From positions 22,473 through 86,472 of the forward strand of contig JAHITV010000035.1 in assembly GCA_018817315.1 (NCBI GenBank): a stretch of 64,000 bases of DNA, written 5' to 3'. Of this stretch, positions 4,262 through 25,213 are shown in pieces. Under the pieces are notes generated by a model. It worked only from the letters and a program-made list of their open reading frames with translations, did no database searches and was not told the DNA's origin. The position numbers and the translations under genes are program-made. Numbering within the stretch: position 1 is the stretch's first letter; the number at the start of each line of letters is the position of its first letter. This stretch comes from Patescibacteria group bacterium. GTDB taxonomy: Bacteria; Patescibacteriota; Patescibacteriia; UBA1558; UBA10009.

Positions 4262-5638
4262 ATGAACTTAATAAAACAAAAAAAGATAATCACTTTAGTT
4301 CTTATAGCGGTCCTAATAATGACTTCTGGTTTATCTTGTAAACTTTTGCCTACCAAAAAACCTCCTTTAAGTTTAACCAAACCTATTGAATTATCTTACT
4401 GGGGAGTGTGGGATAGCAGCGATGATTGGCAACCCCTAATTGATGATTTTAATATCATGCACCCTAACATTAAAATCATTTATAAAAAATTCAGGTATGC
4501 TGAATATGAACAAAAACTATTAGAAGCCTGGGCAGAAGACAGGGGGCCGGATATCTACAGTATTCCTGCTACTTGGCTAAAAAAGTATCAAGAAAGAATA
4601 ACTCCTATGCCCGCCAGTGTTAAATTATCTTTTCGGGAGGTTAAAAAAGTTTTGGGCAAAACCGAAATATCTGATGTCGTAAGACAACTGCCCACTTTTT
4701 CTTTAAATGACATTAAAAATAAATTTGTAGATGTAATTAATGATGATATTATTATGGATGGCCAGATTTATGGCCTACCTTTTAGTGTAGACACCTTAGT
4801 CCTTTATTATAACCGTGATATTTTGGATAGCAATGGCATAGCGGTCCCTCCTGGTAATTGGACTGAGCTTGCTGAAACTGTAAAAAAAATAACCAAAGTG
4901 GATAAAAATAATAACATTATCCAGTCAGCTATAGCTTTAGGCACAGCCAATAATGTCCCTCAAGCCTTTGATATTGTTTCTTTACTAATGATGCAAAACG
5001 GAACACAAATGATAAGCAGTACTGGTCAAGTTAATTTTCATTTATCTCCTACTAAAGAAAGAGATAATCTGCCCGGTCTGCAGGCTTTGCTCTTTTATAC
5101 TGATTTTGCCAACCCTATCAAGGAAGTATATTCTTGGAATGCAGAACAACTAAATGCTTTTGAAGCTTTTATTTCTGGAAAGTTAGCTATGCTTTATGGT
5201 TATTCCTATTATCTGCCCTTAATTAAAACTCAAGCGCCAAAACTGGATGTTGGCATTGCTCCTATGACCCAAATTCAAGGCGCTACCAACCCACTTAATT
5301 ACACTGATTACTGGGTAGAAACTGTTTCCCATAAAACTAAAAGTATTGATGCTAGTTGGGGCTTTTTAACTTTTGCTGCCAGTCAAAATGAAACAGAAAA
5401 ATACTTAGAAAAAACAAAAAAGCCAGCCGCTTTAAGAAATTTAATTACTAAACAAAGAGAAGATCCGGAAATCAGTGTCTTTGCCAACCAAACTTTATCA
5501 GCTACTCACTGGTATAAAGGTAAGGATATTCTAAAAGCAGAAGAAATATTTAAAGAGCTTATTGAGACTTTGCCCAACAGCGCTGAACCTACAAAATTAC
5601 TGGAATTAACTGCTAAAAAAATTAACTTAACTTTATAA
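4262..5638 (+). CDS. extracellular solute-binding protein (ABC transporter family 1 SBP-like)
   Basis: N-terminal signal anchor. YEQKLLEAWAEDRGPDIYS motif and overall length are typical of SBP_bac_1 sugar-binding proteins. Confidence 0.5.
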   Translation: MNLIKQKKIITLVLIAVLIMTSGLSCKLLPTKKPPLSLTKPIELSYWGVWDSSDDWQPLIDDFNIMHPNIKIIYKKFRYAEYEQKLLEAWAEDRGPDIYSIPATWLKKYQERITPMPASVKLSFREVKKVLGKTEISDVVRQLPTFSLNDIKNKFVDVINDDIIMDGQIYGLPFSVDTLVLYYNRDILDSNGIAVPPGNWTELAETVKKITKVDKNNNIIQSAIALGTANNVPQAFDIVSLLMMQNGTQMISSTGQVNFHLSPTKERDNLPGLQALLFYTDFANPIKEVYSWNAEQLNAFEAFISGKLAMLYGYSYYLPLIKTQAPKLDVGIAPMTQIQGATNPLNYTDYWVETVSHKTKSIDASWGFLTFAASQNETEKYLEKTKKPAALRNLITKQREDPEISVFANQTLSATHWYKGKDILKAEEIFKELIETLPNSAEPTKLLELTAKKINLTL

Positions 5639-6309
5639 TGAAACCTAAACCTTCCAGTCTTTTAATTTATTTTCTTATTCTAATTGGCTTGTTGTTTTTA
5701 CCACTGCTGGTTAAAGCGCAAATTTTACCTGCCTGCAGTACTACGGGTAATTGCGGAATCTGTGATTTTTTAGACACTTTTGTTAATATTATCCGTTGGG
5801 TATTGGGTGTGGTAGGAGGCCTGGCTTTATTACTGATGGTCTGGCACGCTTTTGGCTGGCTAACATCAGCAGGTAATGAAGAAAAAATAAAAACTTCGCG
5901 GCAAGGTATAGTACATACTATTTTAGGTGTGGTTATTATTTTAGTGGCCTGGCAGTTAGTTAATATTATTATTGTGCTGTTAGTAAGTCCGCAAGGTGGA
6001 AATGAAATTAAACTTTTTGGAAATAATGGCAAAATCTGGTACAGATACTGTAGTGAAGTAAATGAATGTATTGGCCGGGCAGATGGCAGTCCTTGTGGAG
6101 ATGGTTATTATTGTGAAAATCAAAGCTGTAATAACACCGGAGAAAGTGCTTGTAATTATTGGGCAACCTATAAGGATCCTGCTAAAATGGGCGGTACTAA
6201 TCCTTATGCTGAATACAGATGTTTAACTAAAGATCAATGTGATCCTTATGAAAATTTAGGTCCGGCTTACTGCCCAGGAACAGAAGAAAGCTGTTGTAAA
6301 CCCAAATAA
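5638..6309 (+). CDS. VirB2/TrbC-like pilin family protein, paralog 1, with Cys-rich N- and C-terminal extensions
   Basis: Signal peptide, then conserved two-helix core (ALLLMVWHAFGWLTSAGNEEKIKTSRQGIVHTILGVVIILVAW) shared with 8 downstream paralogs. C-terminal 90 aa contains about 16 Cys. ATG overlaps the upstream stop (TAATG). Confidence 0.55.
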   Translation: MKPKPSSLLIYFLILIGLLFLPLLVKAQILPACSTTGNCGICDFLDTFVNIIRWVLGVVGGLALLLMVWHAFGWLTSAGNEEKIKTSRQGIVHTILGVVIILVAWQLVNIIIVLLVSPQGGNEIKLFGNNGKIWYRYCSEVNECIGRADGSPCGDGYYCENQSCNNTGESACNYWATYKDPAKMGGTNPYAEYRCLTKDQCDPYENLGPAYCPGTEESCCKPK

Positions 6310-6343
6310 CTTAACCCATAAAATTATTTTAAACAAATCTTCT

Positions 6344-6727
6344 ATGAATTTATTTAAAAAAACAGTTGCTCTTATTATTTTTATTTTACTGTTTAATTTA
6401 TTAATCGGATATAATGCTAATTTGGTTTATGCGCAAAACACTAATGAATCTGGTACATATTTAGAAAATCCTTTGGGTTCAGAAAGTTTAACTGCCATTG
6501 ATATTTATGCCCGCCTTATTTATGCTTTTATGGGTTTTACTGGAATTTTAGCGTTAATTATGTTTATTCTTGGCGGTTTTCAGTGGATGACAGCCGGGGG
6601 TAATGCTGAAAAAATCAAAAAGGGCAGAGACACTTTAATTTGGGCTGTTTTGGGTCTAGTTATTATTTTTGCTAGTTACGCTATTCTTAGAGCTGTGTTT
6701 CAAACTTTACAATTTGGCGCAGGATAA
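6344..6727 (+). CDS. VirB2/TrbC-like pilin family protein, paralog 2
   Basis: Signal peptide plus core GGFQWMTAGGNAEKIKKGRDTLIWAVLGLVIIFASYAI. Confidence 0.6.
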   Translation: MNLFKKTVALIIFILLFNLLIGYNANLVYAQNTNESGTYLENPLGSESLTAIDIYARLIYAFMGFTGILALIMFILGGFQWMTAGGNAEKIKKGRDTLIWAVLGLVIIFASYAILRAVFQTLQFGAG

Positions 6728-6888
6728 ACTTATACCTAAAACTAGCTAAAAACAATCAATTATTGTATAATTATATTGATAAATTGGTTTCAAAGTTATC
6801 CACATTATTAATTAATAAATAAAATAATACACTGGAATTTTTATTCTTAAGTGAATATAATTTCCAAACGTGGAAGGGGGTGAAGACA

Positions 6889-7257
6889 ATGAAAAAATTT
6901 TTAACAAAGAAAAATTTAATTGCTCTGGCCGGAGGCCTGTTATGGGCAATCCCTCTAATGGTGGGAGCTCAAGCATCTTTAGGTATAGAGATTGGAGGTT
7001 CTACTGGTTTAGGTAGTCGTGATCTTAAAGAAACCATTGCTTCTGTTTTAAATGTACTTCTTGGTTTCTTGGGTATAATTGCAGTAATTGTTATCCTTCT
7101 AGGTGGTTTTAAATGGATGACAGCCGGGGGTAATGAAGATAAAGTAGCAGAAGCTAAAAAACTTTTAGGCGCGGGTATTATTGGCTTAATAATTATTCTA
7201 GCTGCCTATGCTATTGCTACTTATGTCATTAGTACCATTTCAACCGCCACTCAATAA
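6889..7257 (+). CDS. VirB2/TrbC-like pilin family protein, paralog 3
   Basis: Core GGFKWMTAGGNEDKVAEAKK. ATG at 6889 is preferred over the GTG at 6880 because a GAAGGGGG Shine-Dalgarno sits 6-10 nt upstream. Confidence 0.6.
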   Translation: MKKFLTKKNLIALAGGLLWAIPLMVGAQASLGIEIGGSTGLGSRDLKETIASVLNVLLGFLGIIAVIVILLGGFKWMTAGGNEDKVAEAKKLLGAGIIGLIIILAAYAIATYVISTISTATQ

Positions 7258-7399
7258 TCCCTGCTCCATAATAGTCAGCATTAATAACAAATTTTGTTAA
7301 ATTTACAATTTATACTATATCCCGTCCCGCCATTGGTATGGCGGGATAAGGCATAAATTGTAAGGATTATAAATTATTTATAATTTGAATCTTAAATTA

Positions 7400-7840
7400 A
7401 TGAGCTTTTTATTTAAAAAAAATAAATTATGGCAGTTGGGCTTTGTTGCCCTGTTTTTATTTTTAACCGCTTCTTTTTTATTGCCTTGTTCTCTTTTTGC
7501 TCAAGAAGCTCCGCCTCCTGCCAGTGCGGCCTTAGAAGGATTAGATTTAACTGCCCAAAAAGCTCAAATTAATACGGAAATTACTGCCACGCAAATGGTC
7601 GGTTATATTATAAACTTAATTCTAGGATTTTTAGGCGTTATCTTTTTGGTTTTGGTTATTTATGGCGGTTTTCAGTGGATGACAGCCGGCGGTAATGAGG
7701 AAAAAGTAAAAAAAGGACGTGACATGATTGTTCAAGCAGCTATTGGTCTGGCTATTATTCTCTTTGCTTTTGTTTTAACCAACTTTGTCATCTTCAGATT
7801 ACTTGGCATTGCTGTAGGAAATGGTTCTTCCCCTTATTAA
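7400..7840 (+). CDS. VirB2/TrbC-like pilin family protein, paralog 4
   Basis: Core GGFQWMTAGGNEEKVKKGRD. The ORF track begins at TTG 7385; the first ATG is at 7400. Confidence 0.55.
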   Translation: MSFLFKKNKLWQLGFVALFLFLTASFLLPCSLFAQEAPPPASAALEGLDLTAQKAQINTEITATQMVGYIINLILGFLGVIFLVLVIYGGFQWMTAGGNEEKVKKGRDMIVQAAIGLAIILFAFVLTNFVIFRLLGIAVGNGSSPY

Positions 7841-7849
7841 TTAAGAAAT

Positions 7850-8419
7850 ATGAAAATCAAAATCTTATTTGTAATAATTTTCTTTCTACTAGGATATTTC
7901 TTGTTCCCTAATTTATCTTTTGCTCAAAATATTGATGTTAGTGATACTTGCCCGCCTGGAATGTCTTTGCAGGACTGTATTAGAATGGGTTTAGGCCAAG
8001 TGGGTGATACCAGTGGTTATGGTCCGGCCGGACCCATAGAAGCCACTGCTATTTCCGAAAAAGTTGGTAATATTATTTCTTATGTTCTGGCTTTTTTAGG
8101 CGTTATCTTCTTGGTTATCACTGTTGCTTCTGGTATCCAATGGATGACAGCCGGCGGTAATGAGGAAGTGGTTAAAAAAGCGCGGACTAGACTGGTTAAT
8201 GCTACTGTGGGCTTAATTATTGTAGTAGCTGCCTATGCTATAACCTGGTTTGTAGTTACCAAACTTAGACAAAGTATTGATATAGGTGCTGGTTCTGGGT
8301 CTACCTCTTTGAGTTGTAGTGATCCCATTGACTGTGAAGGTACTAGTTGGGCTAATGAATGTTACAGTAGTGGTGGATCGGTTAATTGTATAGATAACTT
8401 TTGTGCATGTACTTATTAA
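7850..8419 (+). CDS. VirB2/TrbC-like pilin family protein, paralog 5, with Cys-rich C-terminal tail
   Basis: Core SGIQWMTAGGNEEVVKKARTRL. Tail CSDPIDCEGTSWANECYSSGGSVNCIDNFCACTY. Confidence 0.6.
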   Translation: MKIKILFVIIFFLLGYFLFPNLSFAQNIDVSDTCPPGMSLQDCIRMGLGQVGDTSGYGPAGPIEATAISEKVGNIISYVLAFLGVIFLVITVASGIQWMTAGGNEEVVKKARTRLVNATVGLIIVVAAYAITWFVVTKLRQSIDIGAGSGSTSLSCSDPIDCEGTSWANECYSSGGSVNCIDNFCACTY

Positions 8420-8441
8420 TAAAATATTATATTGGATATAA

Positions 8442-8807
8442 ATGAAAAAAATCTTCACAATCATTTTAATATTATTCTTTCTGTTTTTAAGCACTTCTTT
8501 TGTTTTAGCAGCTGATCCTTTGGAAGATAATCTTAAGGCAATCGGCCAAGGCGCTGATTATTCTACCAATGTTGGCGAGGAAACCATTCCTTCTTTTATT
8601 GGCCAAATGGTAGCTATTATCTTGGGTTTTATCGGCTCAATCTTTTTCATTATTGTTGTTTATTCTGGTATTCAGTGGATGACAGCCGGAGGTAATGAAG
8701 AAGTGGTTAAAAAATCACGTACCAGGTTAATTAATAGTATTATTGGACTGGCTATTACAACTGCTGCTTATTTTATTACCCAGCTAATCAGTAGAGCTTT
8801 TATCTAG
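8442..8807 (+). CDS. VirB2/TrbC-like pilin family protein, paralog 6
   Basis: Core SGIQWMTAGGNEEVVKKSRTRL. Shares a 20+ bp identical DNA stretch with paralog 5. Confidence 0.6.
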   Translation: MKKIFTIILILFFLFLSTSFVLAADPLEDNLKAIGQGADYSTNVGEETIPSFIGQMVAIILGFIGSIFFIIVVYSGIQWMTAGGNEEVVKKSRTRLINSIIGLAITTAAYFITQLISRAFI

Positions 8808-8830
8808 ATTATAAACTGCTTTTTAACTCC

Positions 8831-9418
8831 ATGAACAAACTTTCAACTAAGATAGGGCTATTGTTTCTGTCTGTATTAATACTTTTTTGTATTTTACCGA
8901 TAAATACACTGGCCCTAGATATTGATAAATATTCTGATATTATAGCTGAAAGAGGAGGTTATCAAACTGGCGGCGATGTTGAAACTTTTTTTGACACCTT
9001 TATAGGAAGAGTTATTGCTTATGTATTAGGATTTGTCGGCATAATCTTTTTGATTTTGATTATTATTTCCGGCTTTCAGTGGATGACAGCCGGAGGAAAT
9101 GAAGAAAAAGTCGGTATAGCCCGCAAACGGATAGTTAGCGCAGTAATTGGTTTATTTATTATCCTTGCCGCCTATCTTATAACTTATTTTGTCTACACTA
9201 CTATTAAAACTGCCAGCGAAGGGGGAACGCCAGCAAATTTACAAGAGGGCTTTGAATGTCAATATAATACTGATTGCACTGATCCTAGCGAACCTTACTG
9301 TCAGCATTTCCCTACCTGGAGTTTTTGCGCAAGATGTACAGAAGACAGCCATTGCGGACCAGGAGAACAATGTTGTACATCTTTAACTAGTAACTGGTGC
9401 GCTGGCTCTTGTAATTGA
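8831..9418 (+). CDS. VirB2/TrbC-like pilin family protein, paralog 7, with Cys-rich C-terminal tail
   Basis: Core SGFQWMTAGGNEEKVGIARKR. Tail CQYNTDCTDPSEPYCQHF...CARCTEDSHCGPGEQCCTSLTSNWCAGSCN. Confidence 0.6.
   Translation: MNKLSTKIGLLFLSVLILFCILPINTLALDIDKYSDIIAERGGYQTGGDVETFFDTFIGRVIAYVLGFVGIIFLILIIISGFQWMTAGGNEEKVGIARKRIVSAVIGLFIILAAYLITYFVYTTIKTASEGGTPANLQEGFECQYNTDCTDPSEPYCQHFPTWSFCARCTEDSHCGPGEQCCTSLTSNWCAGSCN
9024..9090 (+). repeat. 67-bp segment identical to 9628..9694 (inside paralog 7 core region)
   Basis: Direct read: tattaggatttgtcggcataatctttttgattttgattattatttccggctttcagtggatgacagc is identical in both genes. Confidence 0.85.
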
Positions 9419-9428
9419 TAATAATAAT

Positions 9429-10022
9429 ATGAAACCTGCCAAAAAAATTTGTATAATCATAATTTTTATTTCATTATTGACAATTATTTTTTCCTATCAA
9501 ATAAATAACGCTCTAGCCTTTACTCAAAGTGAAAAATATAAAGGTTATCTTGATATTGCCAGAGAACAAAGCGGCTATAATACAATAAATGATGTTAGTC
9601 AGCTACCTGCTAGAATTATTGTCTTGATATTAGGATTTGTCGGCATAATCTTTTTGATTTTGATTATTATTTCCGGCTTTCAGTGGATGACAGCAAGCGG
9701 CAATGAGGAAAAAATTAGCAGTGCCCGTAAACGAATAATTAATGCTTCTATTGGTCTGGGTATTACTTTATGCGCCTTTATTATCTCTTATGGTATTTTT
9801 AAACTGTTTTATGAACAAACCTTACAAGTACCAAGCGGAGGTATAGAACCGCCGCCAGGGGCAGGAGAAATAATTCCTTGCAGTTCTGATATACAATGTG
9901 AAGATAGATCGCCAAGAATTTATTGTCTTAGTGGAAACTGTGTTGAATGCATAGAAGACGCTCACTGTACTCTTGATAAATATTGTCATCCCAGTTGGCA
10001 TGCCTGCCTGCCTTCTCCTTAA
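9429..10022 (+). CDS. VirB2/TrbC-like pilin family protein, paralog 8, with Cys-rich C-terminal tail
   Basis: Core SGFQWMTASGNEEKISSARKR. Tail CSSDIQCEDRSPRIYCLSGNCVECIEDAHCTLDKYCHPSWHAC. Confidence 0.6.
   Translation: MKPAKKICIIIIFISLLTIIFSYQINNALAFTQSEKYKGYLDIAREQSGYNTINDVSQLPARIIVLILGFVGIIFLILIIISGFQWMTASGNEEKISSARKRIINASIGLGITLCAFIISYGIFKLFYEQTLQVPSGGIEPPPGAGEIIPCSSDIQCEDRSPRIYCLSGNCVECIEDAHCTLDKYCHPSWHACLPSP
9628..9694 (+). repeat. 67-bp segment identical to 9024..9090 (inside paralog 8 core region)
   Basis: Same 67-mer as above. Confidence 0.85.
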
Positions 10023-10042
10023 AGATTATTTATTATACCTAT

Positions 10043-10450
10043 ATGAAAATTATAAATAAAATTAAAATCAAATTAATTCTTTTACTGGCGAGTTTAACTT
10101 TTTTGCCGGCTGAAATTTCTAAAGCCCAAAATCCTCTTGAGCGTTTAAAAAGTACTGCTTCTCAATCCGGCTATGCCACTCAACAGGTTACCCCGGCAGA
10201 AACTGTAGCTACTATTATTATTTATGTGCTGGGATTTATTGGTTTAATTTTTCTGGCAGTTACAATTTTTTCCGGCTTTCAGTGGATGACAGCCGGAGGC
10301 AATGAGGAAAAAATCAGTGAAGCTAAAAAACGTTTGCAGTATGCAGTTATTGGCTTACTAGTAATCTTAGCGGCTTATACTATAACCATCTTTGTTTCTC
10401 GTGCTCTAATTCATTCAACTACCCAATATTATTACGGTCCTTATCCATGA
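10043..10450 (+). CDS. VirB2/TrbC-like pilin family protein, paralog 9
   Basis: Core SGFQWMTAGGNEEKISEAKKR. Start at internal ATG (MKIINKIKIK) rather than the overlapping upstream ATG at 9983. Confidence 0.55.
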   Translation: MKIINKIKIKLILLLASLTFLPAEISKAQNPLERLKSTASQSGYATQQVTPAETVATIIIYVLGFIGLIFLAVTIFSGFQWMTAGGNEEKISEAKKRLQYAVIGLLVILAAYTITIFVSRALIHSTTQYYYGPYP

Positions 10451-10469
10451 AAATATTTATTGATTTATA

Positions 10470-10497
10470 AGAGCCCTGAAAAGTGGCTCTTTTTTAT
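10470..10497 (+). terminator. rho-independent terminator closing the pilin array
   Basis: agagcc-ctgaaaagt-ggctct hairpin followed by TTTTTTATTT. Confidence 0.55.
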
Positions 10498-10525
10498 TTA
10501 AATTAAAATTGATAAAATAGGAATA

Positions 10526-12490
10526 ATGCCAATCTTTCTAAAAAAACATTCTAAAAAAATCCTGTGGCTGGGGATCTTTCTTTATTTTTCTATTTTTTGT
10601 GGAATCTGTATCTGGAAATATTCCCAGTTTGGCTATAATGGCTTGGATTTAGCGATTTTTAATCAGGTTTATTCCAACTCAACTGTTGGGCAACTTTTTC
10701 AATTTACTATTCATCCCCAATCTTATTTAGGCGATCACCTGGCTTTGATTATTATTCCCCTGCTACCGCTTTATTATTTTTTCCGACATCCTCTTTGTTT
10801 ATTAATCATGCAAACCTTGATTATTGCTCTTACTGCTTGGCCTATTTATAAAATCTCTCAAAAATTGTTTGCTGGCTTATGGCCTTTGTTTTTTAGTTTG
10901 GCCTGGCTATTTAATCCTTTTACGCAAAATATTAATATTTTTGAGTTCCATCATCTGCCTTTTGCTGTTTTTTTGATTTTTTGGGCTTTTTATTTTTACC
11001 AAAATAAACGTTTTACTTATTTTATTCTGTTTACTGTACTTAGTTTAATGGTCCGTGAAGATGTTGCTTTGGTAATGGTAATGTTTCCGATTCTGGCTCT
11101 TTTAGAAAAAAGAGGGATTAAATGGATTATCTGGCCTGGTTTAATTTCTCTTGGTTGGTTTTTTGTAGCTATAAAAATAATCTCTTATTTTTCTCCGGAA
11201 AGTCAATATAAATTTCTTTATTACTATTCCTGGCTTGGTCAAAGCTGGACAGAAATAATCATCAATACTTTCGCTCATCCTTTATTAGTGCTTAAACACC
11301 TTGCCACTTGGCATAATTTGATGTTCACCTTGGGGTTAATGCTACCCTTTGCTTATCTTTTAAAAATCAGATATTTATTATTAGGATTTCTGATTTATTT
11401 ACAGCTTATTTTTGGCGGTTCTAGTAATTCCACTATTATTCTTAGTCTTCATTATTCAGCTTTGCTTTTACCAGCGCTTTTTATTGCTTTTATTTATTTT
11501 ATAAAAAATATTACGAAATTATCTCCGCAAAATAAATTAAAGCTTTTTTTAGGCAGAGAAAAATTATTAACTGTCAGTATTATAACTATAGCAATTATTT
11601 ATTCCTGCTTGACCCTTGGTCCCTTACCTGCAGTAATAAAAAATCTGGTTAAACCAACCAAAACAATAGAAATTACTAATGCTAAAAAGGAATTCCTACA
11701 AACTGTATCAGTTAAAAACAGTGTTGTTACTACTTATGAATTTTTAGCACCGCTTTCTAATCGTTCTGATATTTACTCACTTCATTATGCTTTTATTGGC
11801 AAACAACAATTCTCTGATGTTAATTATACTTTGCCTGAAAATTTAGATGTAATGCTTATTGACTTTGATGATTTTCTTACTTATGAATTGCAATTCCCTA
11901 ATATTAAAGCTTGGCAACAATATTATCAAGATGGCGATAATAATATAAGAAAATTAATAAAGGAACGAGACTTTAAAGTAACTAAAGTTTTTGATTCTTT
12001 AGTCCTAATGGAAAAAGATAAGGACTTGGATATAATTTTATATGAAAGAGGAAATAATTTTAATAATATTCAACACCCCAAAAAAATAAATCTTGATAAC
12101 AAGATAAATTTTCTAGGCTGGAATGATAATCAATCAATCTCTGATCAAAATTTAAAATCTTTCAGTTTTTATTGGCAAGCTACTAAAAAACTGGAAGAAA
12201 ATTACCAGCTTAAATTAATTTTAAAAGATGAAAATGATCAGATTATTTATGAAAAAATTTATGCCTTAGCTTATGGTCTTTGCCCTACTACTGAATGGCA
12301 AACCAATGAAGTAATTAAAACAAATTATTGGTTTTATACCCCTCAAAAAATAGCTAATCTTAGCTATAAAATAGAACTTGAATTAGTTGAGTTAAAGGGC
12401 TTTTTAAAACTTGATGGCTTACGTTCTGTTATACCAATAATTACTAAAGAAAATAAATTAACTCCCCATATCAAATTACTTGATAAATAA
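10526..12490 (+). CDS. DUF2079-like polytopic membrane protein
   Basis: More than 12 predicted TM helices. N-terminal YSQFGYNGLDLAIFNQVYSNS motif resembles DUF2079 proteins, with a large C-terminal extracytoplasmic domain. Confidence 0.45.
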   Translation: MPIFLKKHSKKILWLGIFLYFSIFCGICIWKYSQFGYNGLDLAIFNQVYSNSTVGQLFQFTIHPQSYLGDHLALIIIPLLPLYYFFRHPLCLLIMQTLIIALTAWPIYKISQKLFAGLWPLFFSLAWLFNPFTQNINIFEFHHLPFAVFLIFWAFYFYQNKRFTYFILFTVLSLMVREDVALVMVMFPILALLEKRGIKWIIWPGLISLGWFFVAIKIISYFSPESQYKFLYYYSWLGQSWTEIIINTFAHPLLVLKHLATWHNLMFTLGLMLPFAYLLKIRYLLLGFLIYLQLIFGGSSNSTIILSLHYSALLLPALFIAFIYFIKNITKLSPQNKLKLFLGREKLLTVSIITIAIIYSCLTLGPLPAVIKNLVKPTKTIEITNAKKEFLQTVSVKNSVVTTYEFLAPLSNRSDIYSLHYAFIGKQQFSDVNYTLPENLDVMLIDFDDFLTYELQFPNIKAWQQYYQDGDNNIRKLIKERDFKVTKVFDSLVLMEKDKDLDIILYERGNNFNNIQHPKKINLDNKINFLGWNDNQSISDQNLKSFSFYWQATKKLEENYQLKLILKDENDQIIYEKIYALAYGLCPTTEWQTNEVIKTNYWFYTPQKIANLSYKIELELVELKGFLKLDGLRSVIPIITKENKLTPHIKLLDK

Positions 12491-18240: not shown

Positions 18241-18942
18241 ATGAAAGTGATAGGTTTATCTTCGGATATTTTATATAAAACAGTTCCTCCTACCTCAAAA
18301 AAAATCTTTAAAATATTTCGTAAAATTAACTGCCGCGCCGTTGAAATACATTGTCCTGCCAGCGAATTATCCTCTTTAGAAAGAATTGATCCTGCTGATT
18401 TACAAGGATTTACGCATGTTTCTCTTCATTTACCAAGTAGAGGGATAATTTATGACAATAATTCTAAAACCAAAAGAATTCTTGAACTAATACAAAGAAC
18501 TAAGGAAAAATTAAATTTTAAATGGGTGATAGTTCATCCTCATAAAGTAAAGAATTGGAATATCTTTAAGAATTGTTCATTCACAGTTGCCGTGGAAAAT
18601 ATGGATTATAAAAGAAATTTTGGTAAAAACGTTGAAGATTTAAAAAAAATTTTTAAAAATACTTTTCTAAAATTTATTTTAGATATTAATCATTGTTTTA
18701 CTAACGATAGATCATTAAAGCTAGTGGATGATTTATATAAAAATTTTAAAGATAAATTATGCGAAATCCATGTCAGTGGTTTTATCAAAAACCATGAGCC
18801 ACTACACCTAACCAAACAAAAGAAAATCCTGCAAGCGATTCCTGATTGTACTTGTCCTATTATTATTGAAAGTGTCTGTCTTAACGAAGATCAACTTAAG
18901 AAAGAATTTACCTATATTAATAATTTTTTCCATGCCTCATAA
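18241..18942 (+). CDS. hypothetical protein, possible sugar phosphate isomerase/epimerase (xylose isomerase-like TIM barrel)
   Basis: Spaced VIVHP...AVENMD...LDINHCF...EIHVSG motifs resemble the metal-ligand pattern of AP-endonuclease-2/xylose-isomerase-like TIM barrels. Confidence 0.3.
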   Translation: MKVIGLSSDILYKTVPPTSKKIFKIFRKINCRAVEIHCPASELSSLERIDPADLQGFTHVSLHLPSRGIIYDNNSKTKRILELIQRTKEKLNFKWVIVHPHKVKNWNIFKNCSFTVAVENMDYKRNFGKNVEDLKKIFKNTFLKFILDINHCFTNDRSLKLVDDLYKNFKDKLCEIHVSGFIKNHEPLHLTKQKKILQAIPDCTCPIIIESVCLNEDQLKKEFTYINNFFHAS

Positions 18943-20392
18943 ATTAAAAATTGTTTCTATTGCTTCGGAAGTATACCCTTTTAGTAAAAGCGGTGGTTTA
19001 GCTGATGTCGTGTGTAGCTTGTCTAAAATCCTAAAACAATTAGGCCATGATATAATAGTTATTACCCCTTTTTACGGAGAAATCATTGACCGAAAAAAAT
19101 ATAATCTAAAACCGGTTTTTGAAAATGTCTCTTTGGAAATGGACAAGGAAACAAAAATTAAAGTAAATTATTTACAGGGGTATTTAGATAATGACCTGCC
19201 TATTTATTTTGTGGCAAACGAAAAATTCTTTTCCCGTAAAAAAGAATTATATGGCAGTACTAAAGAAAATAAAAGATTTTACCTTTTTGACGTTGCCGCT
19301 TTAAAACTAATTGATTTGCTTAAATTTAGGGCTAATATTATTCATTGTCATGACTGGCACGCTGGTTTGGTTCCTGAATTATTGCATAAAAATTTTAACA
19401 ATAATAAATATCCTTCTTTAAAAAACAGTAAAACAGTCTTCACTATTCATAATTTAGCTTTTCAATTGGGTTATGATTGGTGGCAGGTGCCTTTAACAGA
19501 GAAAGATTATGGCCGCAAAGCTTTACCTAAATTTTACGATCCTAAAATGGAGTATATTAATTTTGCTAAACGAGCCATTACCCATGCTGATATTATTAAT
19601 ACTGTTTCTGAACAATATGCCGAGGAAATTTTAACCAAAGACTTTGGGCAAGATTTACAGCGAATACTTAACAGTAATAAAAAAAAGCTTTTTGGTATCA
19701 TTAACGGCATTGATGAAAAAGAATATAATCCAGCTACTGATCCAGGATTAGCAAAAAATTACAGCGTTGACAGTCTTTATTTTAAAAAACAAAATAAAGA
19801 AGCTCTGCAAAAACTTTTTAATCTGCCTGTTAAAGACGTTCCGGTTATAGGTATGACCTCGCGTTTAGTTGAACAAAAGGGCTTTAATTTATTAGATAAA
19901 ATTTTAGAAACTTTGTTGTCATTTGATTTGCATTTTATAATTATGGGTGACGGGGATAAAAAATATGTAAGTATAATCAATAAGATGGAAAAAAAATATC
20001 CTAAAAAATTGGCTTATTCTAAGTTTGAACAAAAAATAGAAACTAGTATTTATGCTGGTGGTGACATGCTTTTAATGCCTTCCCGTTTTGAACCTTGTGG
20101 TTTAAACCAGCTTTATGCTCTACGTTATGGCTGTATTCCTATTGTCCATAAAATCGGTGGTTTAGCAGACACGATTACAGAATTTAATCCCAAAACCAAT
20201 AAAGGCAATGGTTTTACTTTTAAACATTATCATGAATATAAATTACTTATGGCTATAACCAGAGCAATGGTAACATATCAACATAAAGATGTCTGGAAAG
20301 GTTTAGTAGAAAAAGCTATGAGAATGTCATCTTTTTGGACATTTTCTGCTAAAAAATATGTTGTTTTATATAAAAAAGTTCTAAAAATTTAA
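18932..20392 (+). CDS. glgA: glycogen (starch) synthase, GT5 family
   Basis: KIVSIASEVYPFSKSGGLADVV N-terminal KxGGL motif. C-terminal GT1-like domain (GGLADTI). Start set at the internal ATG MPHKLKIV. Confidence 0.85.
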   Translation: MPHKLKIVSIASEVYPFSKSGGLADVVCSLSKILKQLGHDIIVITPFYGEIIDRKKYNLKPVFENVSLEMDKETKIKVNYLQGYLDNDLPIYFVANEKFFSRKKELYGSTKENKRFYLFDVAALKLIDLLKFRANIIHCHDWHAGLVPELLHKNFNNNKYPSLKNSKTVFTIHNLAFQLGYDWWQVPLTEKDYGRKALPKFYDPKMEYINFAKRAITHADIINTVSEQYAEEILTKDFGQDLQRILNSNKKKLFGIINGIDEKEYNPATDPGLAKNYSVDSLYFKKQNKEALQKLFNLPVKDVPVIGMTSRLVEQKGFNLLDKILETLLSFDLHFIIMGDGDKKYVSIINKMEKKYPKKLAYSKFEQKIETSIYAGGDMLLMPSRFEPCGLNQLYALRYGCIPIVHKIGGLADTITEFNPKTNKGNGFTFKHYHEYKLLMAITRAMVTYQHKDVWKGLVEKAMRMSSFWTFSAKKYVVLYKKVLKI

Positions 20393-20419
20393 TCTTTTTA
20401 TTAAAAAACAAATAATTTT

Positions 20420-21901
20420 ATGTACTGGGCAAACCTTCTACATATTTACCAACCCCCCAATCAAATACCAGATATTCTGGAAAGGATTGTTAATGAAAGC
20501 TATAGAGCATTGATACATGGTCTTAAAACAAATCCCAAAGCTAAATTGACTTTAAATCTTAATGCTTGTTTAACTGAACTTCTAGCTAGAAAAGGATATC
20601 TTGATGTTATTAAAACATTAAAATTTTTAGCCAAGCGCGGTCAGCTTGAATTTACTGAAACTGCTAAATACCATCCTTTTCTACCAAAGCTACCTGAAAA
20701 AGAAATTGTTAGACAAATAAAATTAAATTATTCAACCAATAAAAAATATTTTGGAGCAACTTATCAACCTCAAGGGTTTTTTTCTCCGGAAATGGCTTAC
20801 AGTAAAAAATTGGCAAAAATTGTCAATGGTTTAGGATATAAATGGCTAATTATTGATGAAATTGCTTATAATGGCAAGAAGGCCAGTATTGATTTTTCTC
20901 AAATATATAAACTAAAAAATAGTAAAAATTTTTACGTTTTTTTCAAAAATGAACGTTACAGTAATCTGATTGCTGGAGCTATAACCCGTTCAGTGCCTTC
21001 TTTTATAAAAGAGCTGGGAAAGGATTATAGTAAAGATAAATATATTATTACAGCTATGGATGGCGAAACTTTCGGACATCACCGCCCTGGTTTAGATGAA
21101 TTTCTTTTTAATCTTTATGCCTCCAAAAAATTCACTTCTATCTTTGTCTCTGAAATACCTAATTATTTTTCTAATCAGGAAATTGTTGATCCCCTGCCTT
21201 CTACCTGGTCTTGTAATACAGAAGATTTAAAAAATAATTTACCCTACAAGCTCTGGTATCAGCCAGATAATCCTATTCATCAGTTACAATGGCAATTTCT
21301 TTATTGGAGCTTGAAAACAGTAGAAAGTCTTAAACCAAAAAATTCTCATCACTATAAAAAAGCTCGGAAGCTTTTAGATGCAGCTTTAAACTCCTGTCAT
21401 TTTTGGTGGGCTTCAAAATACTGGTGGAGTTTGGAAATAATTGAACAAGGGGCTTATGATTTTTATCAAGTGAGTGTAGCTACTAACTCAGCAAAGTTGA
21501 TAAAAAAAGCTAAAGATTATTATCAAAAAATCTTAAGCTTAGCTTTTCAGTGGCAACGTGACGGCACTATTAGAAAATTTCATAAAGATAAGGAATTCTG
21601 GCAAAAAACACCTTTTAAAAACAGAACACCCAAAGAATGGTTTAATCAGATCATCTTAGAATTTGAGGATGAAATGAAAAAAGCAGCTAGCGCGCAAGAA
21701 TATGAAAAAGCTATTAAATGGCGGGATGCTGTTATTAAACTAAAAAGTGGGGTTGATGTTTATGATGTTTTGCATATTGTTAATGAATTAAACACTGTTC
21801 GTAAAATTCCTTCATTAAAACCTTTTCTACAACATAAAAAATTTTCCAAGTTTACCTTAAAATATTTCCAGCCACATCCATATTTAAAAAATAAAAAATG
21901 A
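20420..21901 (+). CDS. glycoside hydrolase family 57 protein with C-terminal UVR domain
   Basis: GH57 motifs are present: H-x-Y-QP near the N-terminus, RGQLEF (GQxE), and TAMDGETFGHH (DGE nucleophile region). The C-terminal EFEDEMKKAASAQEYEKAIKWRDAVIKLK matches the UvrB/UvrC UVR-domain consensus. Confidence 0.7.
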   Translation: MYWANLLHIYQPPNQIPDILERIVNESYRALIHGLKTNPKAKLTLNLNACLTELLARKGYLDVIKTLKFLAKRGQLEFTETAKYHPFLPKLPEKEIVRQIKLNYSTNKKYFGATYQPQGFFSPEMAYSKKLAKIVNGLGYKWLIIDEIAYNGKKASIDFSQIYKLKNSKNFYVFFKNERYSNLIAGAITRSVPSFIKELGKDYSKDKYIITAMDGETFGHHRPGLDEFLFNLYASKKFTSIFVSEIPNYFSNQEIVDPLPSTWSCNTEDLKNNLPYKLWYQPDNPIHQLQWQFLYWSLKTVESLKPKNSHHYKKARKLLDAALNSCHFWWASKYWWSLEIIEQGAYDFYQVSVATNSAKLIKKAKDYYQKILSLAFQWQRDGTIRKFHKDKEFWQKTPFKNRTPKEWFNQIILEFEDEMKKAASAQEYEKAIKWRDAVIKLKSGVDVYDVLHIVNELNTVRKIPSLKPFLQHKKFSKFTLKYFQPHPYLKNKK

Positions 21902-22848
21902 CTCTATTAGAAAAAAATATTAAACAAATTTTAACCAAACATAAACTTACCTCAACCAAAGTTATTCGTTTAAGTAACCGTTTTTTAGTTATCAAAGGAA
22001 AGCTTAAAAGTCAAAAAGTTATTTTTAAAATTTTAATCTCCCAAAATCAGTATGAGCAAGATAAAGCCGGTCAAGCTCTAATCAAAGAAGTAAAATTTTT
22101 AAACTTCTTACAAAATAAAGGAACAAAAATCATAAAACAATCAGTCAACCGAATTATTGATTACCAAAAAAATAAACACAGCTGGTATTTAAAAAATTGG
22201 TTACCTGGTCAGTCTCAAAAAGTTATTGGTAGTGGTTGGTTTTTTAAAGACAATTTTTTTACTACAAAAAATGTTGAGTATTTAAGCTGTTTCTATAATG
22301 ATTTATATCAATTATCAGAATCTTTACCAGCTGATTTACAGAAAATTTTTACACGTTCTAAATTAAGTGATTACGAAAATTTCATTGATTGGAAAAACTT
22401 ATTAATCTTTTTGAGACTAGCCAATCTGCCAATAAAAAAAGATGTTGATAAGATAAAAAAATTTATTATAAGGCACAGAAAAATTTTTGACTCACAACAA
22501 AATGTTATTAATCAATATGAGCCCTACGCTGACCATCTTTTAACCCATAAAAATAAAACTGCTATAATTGACTGGGAAAACGTCAATTTTGGCGATATCG
22601 CCCATGATTTAGCAGTTGTCTGGCTACGTGCTTTTAATCATCCTGACTGGCAGAAATCATTGGTAAATAATTTTAAACACTTACCTTATTTTAAAGAATT
22701 AATGAATCTACAAATTGTCATTCAAAGTGTTTCCAATATTCGTTACTTTTTAGAAACCTCTTATTCAATAGACGAAAAAAACTCCACTAAAATAATAAAA
22801 ATACTTCAAAAATTTGTTAAGCAAGCTTTAAATGACCAAATCATCTAA
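21898..22848 (+). CDS. phosphotransferase family protein (APH/choline-kinase-like fold)
   Basis: LTHKNKTAIIDWENVNFGDIAHDLA carries the catalytic-loop and DFG-like motifs of aminoglycoside-phosphotransferase-like kinases. Confidence 0.5.
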   Translation: MTLLEKNIKQILTKHKLTSTKVIRLSNRFLVIKGKLKSQKVIFKILISQNQYEQDKAGQALIKEVKFLNFLQNKGTKIIKQSVNRIIDYQKNKHSWYLKNWLPGQSQKVIGSGWFFKDNFFTTKNVEYLSCFYNDLYQLSESLPADLQKIFTRSKLSDYENFIDWKNLLIFLRLANLPIKKDVDKIKKFIIRHRKIFDSQQNVINQYEPYADHLLTHKNKTAIIDWENVNFGDIAHDLAVVWLRAFNHPDWQKSLVNNFKHLPYFKELMNLQIVIQSVSNIRYFLETSYSIDEKNSTKIIKILQKFVKQALNDQII

Positions 22849-23737
22849 CAAAAAATTTATTGACCTACATTTCCATTCAGTTTATTCTGATGGTTCTTTA
22901 ACTATTCCTGAATTAATCAATCAATTAAAGAAGTATGATCTTAAAGCAGTTTCTCTAACTGATCATAATACCGTAGCTGGTATTAAAGAATTTTTAAAAA
23001 AAGGCGAAAAAGCAGGCATAAAAATTATTCCGGGCATTGAACTATACACTCATTATAAAAAGTTTGAACTACATATTTTGGGTTATAATTTTGATTACAA
23101 TTATCCGCCTCTGCAAAAAAAATTAGCTATACTTGCAACACAAAGAATTATTGATATTAAAAAATCCTTAAAAATTTTAAAAAAGCAGGGGTTTAAAATA
23201 AATGAAAAACATTTATTCAATGGTCCTTCTAAATATATTGGCTTTGGAGGAATTGTTAAAGAACTTTACCAATTTCCTGAAAATGTTAAAAAGTTACAAA
23301 AAGAAATGAAAACAACGATTCCTCATTTCTTCTCTATTATCAACAAATATTTTAGTAAAAAAAGGCCTGCTTATCTTCCTGAAACTAGCATCCCTATCAA
23401 ACAAGCTGTTGCCTTAATTCACCAAGCCGGAGGATTAGCAATTTTAGCTCATCCGGCTCAACAATTGGGTCGGAAAAGTAAAATTGTTGAAGAGCTTAAA
23501 AAAATAGGCCTAGATGGACTGGAATTACTTTCACCGTATCATCGCTGGCATGATATTGAATATTGGCAAAGGATAGCTAACAGTTTACAATTAATAGTAA
23601 CTGGTGGATCTGATTTCCATTCGACTATTTTTGATCCAAAACAAGCTTTAATAAAAGAACAATGGCAATATCATAAAGTACCTTATCTGATTTATGAGAA
23701 ACTTAAACCATCTTTAAATAAATATAAGAAAAAATAA
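22832..23737 (+). CDS. PHP domain-containing phosphoesterase
   Basis: FIDLHFHSVYSDGSLTIPELI, the N-terminal His-rich PHP motif. Confidence 0.75.
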   Translation: MTKSSNKKFIDLHFHSVYSDGSLTIPELINQLKKYDLKAVSLTDHNTVAGIKEFLKKGEKAGIKIIPGIELYTHYKKFELHILGYNFDYNYPPLQKKLAILATQRIIDIKKSLKILKKQGFKINEKHLFNGPSKYIGFGGIVKELYQFPENVKKLQKEMKTTIPHFFSIINKYFSKKRPAYLPETSIPIKQAVALIHQAGGLAILAHPAQQLGRKSKIVEELKKIGLDGLELLSPYHRWHDIEYWQRIANSLQLIVTGGSDFHSTIFDPKQALIKEQWQYHKVPYLIYEKLKPSLNKYKKK

Positions 23738-23749
23738 TTAATTATTTTA

Positions 23750-25213
23750 ATGGATCGTCAGCTTAAAATCTTATTTGTCGCTAGTGAACTAACTCCTTTG
23801 GCTAAAGTTGGAGGGTTAGCCGATGTTATCGGTTCTCTACCCCAAGCTTTAACTTCTTTAGGGGTTGATGCTAGAGTAGTTATTCCTAAATATGGAATTA
23901 TAGATGAAAAAAAATATTCTCTAAAACTCTTGGCTCAAAAACTTAACACCACTTTTGCTGAAAAAAAAGAAGAGTTTAATATTTACCAAACATATCTTAC
24001 TTCAAGCTCACTTCGCGCTGCTCAAAAAACTCCTCTTTATTTAATAGATCATCAAAAATATTTAGGACAAGGCGGTGTTTATCCTTCACCAGATGCTTCT
24101 TCAGAAGGATCAGCTGAAGAAGCTTATCGTTTTACTTTTTTCACTAAAACAGTTTTAGAAATCTTTAAAGATATTAACTGGCTGCCAGATATTATTCATT
24201 GTCATGACTGGCATGTAGCTATGCTACCGCTACTGGCTAAACAAAGTAAAGAATATTTGCCTACCCTTTTGACTATTCATAACCTTGCTTATCAAGGCGA
24301 TTACCCTGCTGATCTAATAATAAAAATACTTGGTCAACAAATAATCAATTGTCCCTCTATTAGACAAAGGTTAAAAAAATCAGACACTATTAATTACTTG
24401 GAACAAGGAATTTTAAATGCTGATTTAATCAATACTGTTAGTCCAACTTATGCCAGTGAAATACTAACCCCAGAATTTGGTTGTGGCTTGGAAAATGTTT
24501 TGGCTAAACGCAGGCCCTATCTTTTTGGAATCTTAAATGGCATTGATACTAGCCGTTTTAATCCAGAAACTGATCCGGAAATTAATCATAATTATTTAGC
24601 CACTAATTTACAAGGGAAAGTAAAAAATAAAAAGGATTTACAAAATGAATGTGGGCTAAAAATTGAAGAAAACGTTCCGATTATTTCTATGATTTCCCGC
24701 TTAACTGAACAAAAAGGTTTAAATATTCTATTACCCGCTTTAAAAAAACTAATCAAAGAAAAGGCGCAGTTTGTTTTCCTGGGAACGGGCAGTTTAACTT
24801 ATGAAAAAAAGTTAGAACATTTTGCTAAACATAAAAATATTTTTGTAAAAATCGGCTTTGATGCAGCTCTGGCTCAACGTATTTATGCTGGCAGCGACAT
24901 GTTTTTAATGCCTTCTCGTTTTGAACCTTGTGGTTTAGGACAATTAATTAGCTTACGTTACGGCACTATCCCTATTGCCAGGGCTATTGGTGGCCTAAAA
25001 GACACCATTACAGAGCTTGGACCCAATAACGGCAGTGGTTTCCTTTTTTACCCTTATGAAGCGAAAGCGCTGATCAAAACAGTTAAGCGGGCTATCAAGG
25101 TCTTTGCTGACCAAAAAGGCTGGCAACAAGCTCAAAAAAGAGTAATGCAACTGGATTTCTCCTGGATAAAATCAGCAAAAAAATATTTAGAGCTTTATCA
25201 GCGACTTACTTAA
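23750..25213 (+). CDS. glgA: glycogen (starch) synthase, GT5 family, second paralog
   Basis: KILFVASELTPLAKVGGLADVIGSLPQAL. HCHDWH and C-terminal GGLKDTI motifs. Confidence 0.9.
   Translation: MDRQLKILFVASELTPLAKVGGLADVIGSLPQALTSLGVDARVVIPKYGIIDEKKYSLKLLAQKLNTTFAEKKEEFNIYQTYLTSSSLRAAQKTPLYLIDHQKYLGQGGVYPSPDASSEGSAEEAYRFTFFTKTVLEIFKDINWLPDIIHCHDWHVAMLPLLAKQSKEYLPTLLTIHNLAYQGDYPADLIIKILGQQIINCPSIRQRLKKSDTINYLEQGILNADLINTVSPTYASEILTPEFGCGLENVLAKRRPYLFGILNGIDTSRFNPETDPEINHNYLATNLQGKVKNKKDLQNECGLKIEENVPIISMISRLTEQKGLNILLPALKKLIKEKAQFVFLGTGSLTYEKKLEHFAKHKNIFVKIGFDAALAQRIYAGSDMFLMPSRFEPCGLGQLISLRYGTIPIARAIGGLKDTITELGPNNGSGFLFYPYEAKALIKTVKRAIKVFADQKGWQQAQKRVMQLDFSWIKSAKKYLELYQRLT

Follow-up and report, generated by a model that had tools for sequence, protein, structure and literature searches.

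Probable short-tract gene conversion between two ancient VirB2-like pilin paralogs of a Patescibacteria group bacterium

An exact 67-bp patch in two diverged pilin genes

We analyzed a stretch of 64,000 nucleotides (nt; hereafter the window) from contig JAHITV010000035.1, part of a low-GC (about 33%) metagenome-assembled genome (MAG) of the Patescibacteria, or Candidate Phyla Radiation (CPR). Nine tandem genes on its + strand at 5638-10450, here named p1 to p9, encode VirB2-like pilins of the T4SS (type IV secretion system) family, and two neighbors among them, p7 and p8, have very probably undergone a single short-tract, presumably non-reciprocal gene conversion of ~67 bp since this lineage diverged from the closest relatives that have been sequenced. 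The case for short-tract gene conversion is made by synonymous identity inside the tract, near-saturated flanks and phylogenetic incongruence. Judging from sequence comparisons, p7 and p8 are ancient duplicates in a deeply conserved nine-gene VirB2-like array. The two genes and the two copies of the tract are the following (aa, amino acids).

p7, 8831..9418, + strand: VirB2-like T4SS_pilin, 195 aa, Cys-rich C-terminal tail; PF18895, 36.3 bits
p8, 9429..10022, + strand: VirB2-like T4SS_pilin, 197 aa, Cys-rich tail unlike that of p7; PF18895, 34.9 bits
Putative conversion tract, p7 copy, 9024..9090, + strand: exact 67-mer; 21 full codons, all identical to p8
Putative conversion tract, p8 copy, 9628..9694, + strand: exact 67-mer; flank identity falls immediately to 40% (5') and 63% (3')

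A preliminary description of this DNA had reported a perfectly identical 67-bp block in two adjacent and otherwise diverged paralogs, and both halves of that statement were borne out when the alignment was recomputed. The 67-mer TATTAGGATT...GGATGACAGC occurs twice in the window, on the + strand, in register in p7 and p8 and with 0 mismatches, the copies lying 604 bp apart. No third copy was found in the window within 3 mismatches, and shuffled sequences gave 0 matches. In the 30 nt on either side p7 and p8 agree at 12 positions (5') and 19 positions (3'), and the sliding-window profile of the pair displays a sharp 100% plateau in a background of 25-55%. Beyond the block, protein identity between the two genes is 31-41% and DNA identity 46-53%, the values varying with the alignment used. 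Since both flanks are diverged, the structure is that of a patch and not of a hybrid gene produced by a single crossover.

The tract encodes residues ~65-87, (V)LGFVGIIFLILIIISGFQWMTA, which correspond to the C-terminal two-thirds of helix alpha1 and the start of the WMTAGGN loop motif, and it leaves the variable N-terminal region and the Cys-rich tails untouched. It thus lies within the core common to p1-p9, which reads ...LGF.G.IF(hydrophobic)...GFQWMTAGGNEEK...(hydrophobic).... In this core p7 and p8 are each other's closest paralogs (0.685 nt identity), and the other paralogs are 64-77% identical to the block at the aa level.

Synonymous identity exceeds the expectation from selection, codon bias and chance

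A 74-codon core was used to compare all paralog pairs, and in 36 of 36 pairs DNA identity ranged from 46 to 69% with a synonymous divergence (dS) of 0.8-2.4. Among degenerate codons encoding the same residue in p7 and p8, 19 of 19 match inside the tract versus 33 of 62 outside (Fisher p=5e-5). The block includes codons that are rare in this genome, namely GTC (0.09), TCC (0.09), ATC (0.14) and TTG (0.16), and the chance of both genes using the same codons under genome usage is 4e-10 for the specific codons of the block and 7e-8 for any matching ones. By the method of Nei and Gojobori (NG86), the block comprises 13.3 synonymous sites without a single difference, which places the 95% upper bound of the proportion of synonymous differences (pS) at 0.20 and gives a probability of 1.3e-6 for zero differences. 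Outside the block pS is 0.64-0.66 and dS about 1.4-1.6 (rest of the core: pS 0.64, dS 1.43). The dS calculation proposed in the preliminary description for the nine genes thus finds no synonymous change in the block and near-saturation around it.

The GENECONV-style analysis proposed at the same time gave a concordant result: when alignment columns of the nine genes were permuted, the p7-p8 run of 47 matching polymorphic sites exceeded every one of 5000 permutations, the longest of which reached 21. As such a permutation ignores the clustering of conserved sites, two null models respecting this clustering were added. In the first, codons of the real proteins were redrawn from genome or pilin-gene usage (2 x 3000 replicates), and the longest in-register run had a mean of 22 nt and a maximum of 44. 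The second was a between-genome control of 569 pilin genes from 80 arrays, in which 159,667 pairs from different genomes included no diverged pair sharing at least 45 nt, the longest match being 41 nt. The earlier suggestion that identity of this kind goes beyond purifying selection alone therefore withstands permutation, codon redraw and between-genome comparison, none of which matches the p7-p8 patch.

The p7/p8 duplication predates the patch

In a scan of one genome per species we recovered 79 loci with such pilin arrays, and four of them (L001, L002, L003 and L005) display the architecture of the window, in which the pilins stand between a solute-binding protein (SBP) and a DUF2079 protein. 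L001 belongs to Parcubacteria GW2011_GWF2_45_11, and L002 and L005 belong to Ca. Komeilibacteria. All four loci have the SBP at the corresponding place, with 56-66% identity, and L002, L003 and L005 likewise have the DUF2079 protein, with 46-55% identity, the L001 contig stopping before it. Reciprocal best hits to p1-p9 are one-to-one and collinear (L001, 4.5-9.9 kb; L002, L003 and L005, ~4.0-10.5 kb), and the arrays of these relatives have 1-3 extra members. The L003 sequence, a complete syntenic locus, comes from a record named 'uncultured Gammaproteobacteria bacterium'. Dozens of third party annotation (TPA) MAG records under this name (L003, L007, L009, L015 and others) carry Patescibacteria-type PF18895 arrays, and the organism name on such records looks like a placeholder or a mislabel.

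In each of the four loci a p7-type gene and a p8-type gene stand next to each other as distinct genes, and each has the Cys-rich tail of its type. In L001 the p7 ortholog (L001:8218-8808) is 48% identical and the p8 ortholog (L001:8968-9867) 44% identical, each with the same tail type as its counterpart. The tail of this p8 ortholog is ~100 residues longer and has many more Cys residues. Identities outside and inside the block compare as follows.

Outside the block, aa identity: p7 to L001 ortholog, 0.49; p8 to L001 ortholog, 0.43; p7 to p8, 0.31
Inside the block, p7 to p8: 1.00 aa, 0.98 nt
Inside the block, p7 ortholog to p8 ortholog in the four other genomes: 0.36-0.68 aa, 0.59-0.71 nt

In quartet bootstraps with L001, the topology expected from orthology obtained 100% outside the block and the within-genome topology 99% inside it. 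Outside the block, the orthology topology was weaker with the more distant L002, L003 and L005 (83%, 57% and 35%, respectively). Because p7 and p8 have separate orthologs and because the two topologies conflict, we conclude that the p7/p8 duplication predates these speciations and that the identity arose later. Recent segmental gene conversion between p7 and p8, as the preliminary description had proposed, is thus upheld by codon identity, permutation, codon redraw, between-genome comparison and ortholog incongruence.

The same description had called the conversion ongoing, and this is not supported, there being one datable event only and no strain-level variants in the databases. A 40-mer of the block had 0 hits in a metagenome scan, a protein-level metagenome scan returned only relatives at no more than 52% identity, and a homolog search with p7 found no relative above 49% identity. 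Look-ups of contigs by the exact p7 protein and the metagenome scans turned up no second assembly. Its further proposal that conversion generates pilin mosaics, in the sense of diversity, is not supported either and is rather contradicted by the position of the tract: the tract occupies the conserved alpha1/loop core, and p1-p9 are stable, collinear one-to-one orthologs across distant genomes. Given these two observations, the visible effect of the event is local homogenisation.

Alternative explanations

An assembly or consensus artefact, in which similar paralogs were made identical by bubble popping or by the consensus of a strain mixture, has to be considered for a sequence that is a MAG with one contig on record, but we find it improbable. 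Collapse would delete or merge copies, yet two full genes with unique flanks stand. A repeat of 67 nt is shorter than ordinary short reads, so that each copy should have been spanned together with its unique flanks, and bubble popping needs shared k-mers at both ends, in which case most of the block would be truly identical anyway. Furthermore, comparable tracts, described below, are found in MAGs from unrelated projects with differing contig naming (L029, 'NODE_...'; L014, 'BS-150m-C76'; L034, 'BWX82_contig').

A second explanation, that both genes contain a functional element maintained by selection at the nucleotide level (an RNA structure, a regulatory site or a translational pause signal, for example), seems very unlikely to us. 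It draws on a hairpin of 7-9 bp, UCCGGCU-N13-AGCCGGA, which includes locally rare codons and brackets the FQWMT codons in p7, p9 and p6, on the folding of the 107-nt p7 context (z=-2.15) and on codon matching that is raised at positions -4 and +3 even between genomes. However, the 67-mer alone folds no differently from shuffled copies (z=-0.2), the hairpin is disrupted in p8, where the context has z=+0.95, and the p7 and p8 orthologs in four genomes are only 0.59-0.71 identical in nt across the block. The arms pair at 4.05 of 6 positions within a gene versus 4.01 of 6 with arms from other genomes, no covariation was seen over 569 genes, and the 45 nt upstream of the hairpin would be left without explanation. 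At the DNA level the inverted repeat TCCGGCT-N13-AGCCGGA is located at 9068-9096 (p7), 10271-10299 (p9) and about 8665-8692 (p6), and codon preferences specific to certain positions have probably produced it as a by-product.

Purifying selection on the protein combined with shared codon bias, or chance, can be given next to no weight: although the block holds the most conserved motif of the family, with its single-codon W and M, and although 94 pairs of pilin genes from unrelated genomes share exact matches of 25-34 nt, helix alpha1, which makes up most of the block, differs in all other paralogs, the block contains rare codons, and both nulls top out well short of 67 nt, so that this explanation is refuted at P about 1e-6 or lower. 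Equally negligible is the notion that p7 and p8 are a very recent duplication of which all but the core has diverged rapidly since, for which one may cite their adjacency, their Cys-rich tails and their closeness in the core, because p7-type and p8-type orthologs lie side by side between the same flanking genes in L001, L002, L003 and L005, synonymous sites outside the block are near saturation and the orthology topology with L001 is fully supported.

Shorter blocks and tracts in other arrays

The preliminary description had also mentioned shorter exact blocks recurring across p2-p9. Such blocks are real. TGGATGACAGC is present in p2-p9, and the 17-mer CAGTGGATGACAGCCGG is present in five array genes. 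The consensus given as 'cagtggatgacagccggNggtaatgaNgaa' is inexact in p3, p5, p7, p8 and p9. Furthermore, p7 and p9 share 31 nt (9066-9096 and 10269-10299), a run of 19 polymorphic sites with a global permutation p of 0.0016, and p8 and p9 share 25 nt. Single blocks of 20-31 nt are within reach of motif conservation and codon usage, as the 94 between-genome pairs with 25-34 nt indicate. Their number in the array is nevertheless excessive when set against the codon-redraw null, with 5 pairs sharing at least 25 nt versus 0.2 expected (P=3e-4) and 12 pairs sharing at least 20 nt versus 1.3 expected, and similar excesses of short blocks over this null were detected in L001, L005, L014 and L029.

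The Thr codon of the motif is ACA in 9 of 9 genes (e.g. 9086-9088 and 9690-9692) at a genome usage of 0.22. In L002 it is ACG in 8 of 11 genes (usage 0.20) and in L029 it is ACT in 7 of 11 genes (usage 0.24). Universal codon selection at the motif was considered as the cause of this uniformity within arrays and rejected, since the four Thr codons are used nearly equally across genomes (ACT/ACC/ACA/ACG, 85/75/66/61). Array-specific Thr codons suggest an array-wide homogenisation of the motif. In pooled data the ratio of observed to expected codon matching within arrays is 1.17 in the motif versus 1.10 elsewhere, and between genomes 1.05 versus 1.01; this modest effect would fit a low background of micro-conversion centred on the motif, without proving it.

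After removal of physically overlapping open reading frame (ORF) calls, 1863 within-array pairs were available, and four diverged pairs among them share at least 45 nt. In every one of these pairs the two genes are adjacent and the tract overlaps the WMT motif.

Window: tract of 67 nt; aa identity outside, 0.41
L029: tract of 63 nt, L029:10345-10407 and 10727-10789; aa identity outside, 0.27
L014: tract of 60 nt, genes 8678-9103 and 9111-9515; aa identity outside, 0.46
L034: tract of 46 nt, genes 9716-10138 and 10144-10584; aa identity outside, 0.41

In L014 the conserved residues just 5' of the tract are encoded by different codons, followed by 19-20 identical codons. Tracts of at least 30 nt are enriched 9.8-fold among adjacent pairs (22/30 versus 401/1833; p=4e-9). 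The other long matches, in L007, L068, L078, L005 and L071, stem from young tandem duplicates.

These young duplicates, in L007 (99-467 and 601-1056), L068 (6149-6511 and 6620-7000), L005 (5163-5549 and 5591-5980), L078 and L071, have exact matches of 58-339 nt, and in the remainder their nt identity is 77-87%, or 70% in L007, where very few codons could be aligned. Being single-gene duplications, they imply that pilin arrays still occasionally gain copies.

The presence of 46-67 nt tracts in 4 of the 80 arrays, the excess of adjacent pairs, the array-specific motif codons and the excess of short blocks are hints that the process may be recurrent. We raise only as a tentative possibility, and a rather doubtful one, that short conversion tracts anchored at WMTAGGN recur in Patescibacteria VirB2-like arrays and re-homogenise the helix-alpha1/loop core of neighboring genes while their termini diverge freely.

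Direction and possible mechanism

Gene conversion between p7 and p8 could be pictured as follows. During repair or replication of the tightly packed array, a strand from one gene would pair with its neighbor, and pairing would probably nucleate on the CAGTGGATGACAGC(CGG) codons of the FQWMTAGG motif. The motif is proposed as the nucleation site because the tract has its 3' edge in CAGTGGATGACAGC, which belongs to the only stretch in which most paralogs have 11-17 exact nt in common. The heteroduplex would then extend ~50 bp 5' into helix alpha1 and be resolved or repaired as a patch. The outcome would be that the membrane-embedded, subunit-packing core is locally homogenised and that the exposed N-terminal segment and the Cys-rich tails stay paralog-specific. 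In such arrays generally, conversion of this kind probably takes place at low frequency and for the most part between neighbors.

Three points weigh against this account or parts of it. The block is 0.70-0.74 identical in nt to the p7 orthologs, sharing the GFVG codons with the p7 ortholog of L001, and 0.65-0.67 identical to the p8 orthologs; this slight closeness is within noise and names no donor. The exactness of the 67-mer rests on one MAG consensus. Finally, a search for exact matches favors the most conserved residues, and this bias accounts in part for the way in which tracts cluster at the motif. It is to be noted that the 3' flank of p7 continues in a consensus common to p9.

Predicted structure of the pilins

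An AlphaFold (AF2) model of p7 was obtained from an alignment of 70 sequences, with a mean predicted local distance difference test (pLDDT) score of 78. It predicts a leader helix (3-21), a long helix (53-86), a loop (87-90, AGGN), a second long helix (91-129) and a small Cys-rich beta domain (156-191). The model would thus give p7 a VirB2-like layout, that is a leader helix and two long hydrophobic helices connected by a short loop. Foldseek found no match of the p7 model in the PDB at E≤0.001, a tool that discriminates helical hairpins poorly, and a profile of the 70 homologs had no hit among PDB sequences, helical hairpins being poorly discriminated here as well. The top Foldseek match was a chain of a trypsin/half-SLPI complex, which is not significant (E=1.5).

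Cys-rich tails are present in four of the nine pilins: p1 (about 6000-6306), p5 (about 8290-8416), p7 (9206-9415) and p8 (9820-10019). The beta-rich domain of the p7 tail is predicted with a pLDDT of 83-95.

The nine-gene array and its genomic neighborhood

All nine array genes score above the gathering cut-off of PF18895 T4SS_pilin (29.1-43.5 bits, cut-off 26.6), and PF04956 TrbC/VirB2 is matched by array genes below its cut-off only. Each of the nine is a complete ORF that has a start codon and encodes a hydrophobic leader at the N-terminus. The remaining members and the syntenic flanks are listed here.

SBP, 4262..5638, + strand: extracellular solute-binding protein (SBP_bac_1, Pfam); upstream syntenic flank
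p1, 5638..6309, + strand: PF18895, 35.3 bits; divergent first paralog, motif WLTSAGNEEK, long Cys-rich tail
p2, 6344..6727, + strand: pilin paralog; PF18895, reciprocal best hits
p3, 6880..7257, + strand: PF18895, 43.5 bits; GTG start 6880, alternative ATG 6889
p4, 7385..7840, + strand: PF18895; TTG start 7385, alternative ATG 7400
p5, 7850..8419, + strand: PF18895, reciprocal best hits; Cys-rich tail
p6, 8442..8807, + strand: PF18895; reciprocal best hits in L001, L002, L003 and L005
p9, 10043..10450, + strand: pilin paralog, ATG 10043; PF18895
DUF2079 membrane protein, 10526..12490, + strand: Pfam; downstream syntenic flank

The ATG of p1 overlaps the stop codon of the upstream SBP gene, and p1 has rank-1 reciprocal best hits in L002, L003 and L005. 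The best-conserved member by far is p3, with 81-83% identity to its L001 and L003 orthologs. The p7 protein is identical to NCBI KKF32_03685, a hypothetical protein of Patescibacteria group bacterium encoded on a contig of 123,711 bp. The mechanically called ORF of p9 begins at TTG 9983, within the 3' end of p8; ATG 10043 suits the N-terminus of the family (MKII..) and gives a 20-nt gap after p8. From p1 to p9 the intergenic gaps measure 34, 152, 127, 9, 22, 23, 10 and 20 nt, and the spacing of 9-23 nt suggests that p4-p9 are co-transcribed. Promoter and terminator sites were no more numerous in a scan of the array than in shuffles.

A scan of the 19 larger ORFs of the window revealed no T4SS component, and no virB4 was recognisable among them; according to PMC12102498, about 40% of assemblies have pilin genes at a distance from virB4, and T4SS genes are often located near dnaA in Patescibacteria. 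In the window dnaA lies at 31614-32975 (- strand), and the cumulative GC-skew minimum at ~30-36 kb marks a likely replication origin, both ~21 kb from the array. An Rfam scan of the window returned five tRNAs and nothing else. Elsewhere, an ORF of 2548 aa at 56053-63699 (+ strand) combines SpvB, TcdB_toxin_midN, FG-GAP, Ig and RHS-repeat domains, so that an ultrasmall CPR genome here carries a polymorphic-toxin architecture of the Tc/Rhs type. A cluster at 18866-25213 comprises two starch/glycogen-synthase genes, a GH57 glycoside hydrolase and a PHP-domain gene, and an H+-pyrophosphatase gene is located at 45952-47946.

Relation to known systems and significance

Concerted evolution by gene conversion between bacterial paralogs has long been known, e.g. 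in tufA/tufB and in rRNA operons. The p7/p8 patch resembles these cases in being attributable to non-reciprocal copying within a genome and in its signature of synonymous-identity tracts and incongruence between paralog and ortholog trees. In tufA/tufB and rRNA operons, however, whole genes are homogenised and nearly identical, whereas here a single ~67-bp patch stands in otherwise saturated genes (dS about 1.4-1.6), from which it follows that conversion is rare and short relative to divergence.

In Neisseria, gene conversion between pilE and pilS underlies a programmed antigenic variation of pilins, which belong to type IV pili and to an unrelated protein family. Segmental gene conversion of msp2/msp3 in Anaplasma is cited in PMC3556328. 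Both systems share with the p7/p8 case a segmental gene conversion that gives a mosaic gene for a surface filament or protein, but the array described here lacks silent truncated donor cassettes, its nine genes being complete, and the tract is situated in the conserved helix alpha1/loop and not in hypervariable exposed segments. Moreover, the orthologs are stable, without rapid cassette turnover, in genomes whose SBP is only 56-66% identical, and a high frequency of conversion is not evident. Since the paralogs are, at least in this clade, deeply conserved, collinear and individually retained, with occasional short exchanges in the core, fast-turnover antigenic variation is disfavored for this array.

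Tandem virB2 paralogs have been described in Anaplasma phagocytophilum (8-15 copies) and Bartonella (PMC3556328, also cited in PMC12102498). They resemble p1-p9 in being tandem VirB2-type arrays whose pilins have two hydrophobic helices and vary mostly toward the N- and C-termini, and differ from them in phylum and Pfam model; their copy number varies between strains, whereas the array reported here is collinear across distant genomes. Closer still are the 441 VirB2-like pilin arrays (PF18895/PF04956) of Patescibacteria reported in PMC12102498, which comprise 2-11 genes with a mean aa identity of 25% and are described there as highly variable. The p1-p9 array agrees with them in Pfam family, tandem layout, a copy number within this range and low identity between paralogs, and differs in having no recognisable virB4 or other T4SS gene next to it among the larger ORFs scanned in the 64-kb window.

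Recombination between array members is not mentioned in the available part of PMC12102498, where the term 'gene conversion' occurs 0 times, nor in that of PMC10633639, and a full-text literature search combining 'gene conversion' and 'Patescibacteria' returned nothing relevant. The conversion tracts and the deep collinear orthology are additions to what has been described for Patescibacteria arrays, and we found no earlier report of gene conversion in them. Taken alone, the p7/p8 patch adds one instance of a familiar mechanism in a kind of gene array already described, a textbook case that changes little.

For the biology of these organisms, the array suggests that the different pilins are non-redundant parts with a shared, constrained core. 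If recurrent, motif-anchored conversion were true, it would keep this core co-adapted, so that the pilins could co-assemble in one filament or share an assembly machine. For annotation and phylogenetics, it is to be kept in mind that trees built on the conserved pilin core can be misled by conversion. In Ca. Southlakia epibionticum ML1, the one genetically tractable Patescibacteria species, the T4SS cluster holds a series of predicted pilins that PMC10633639 reports to be essential.

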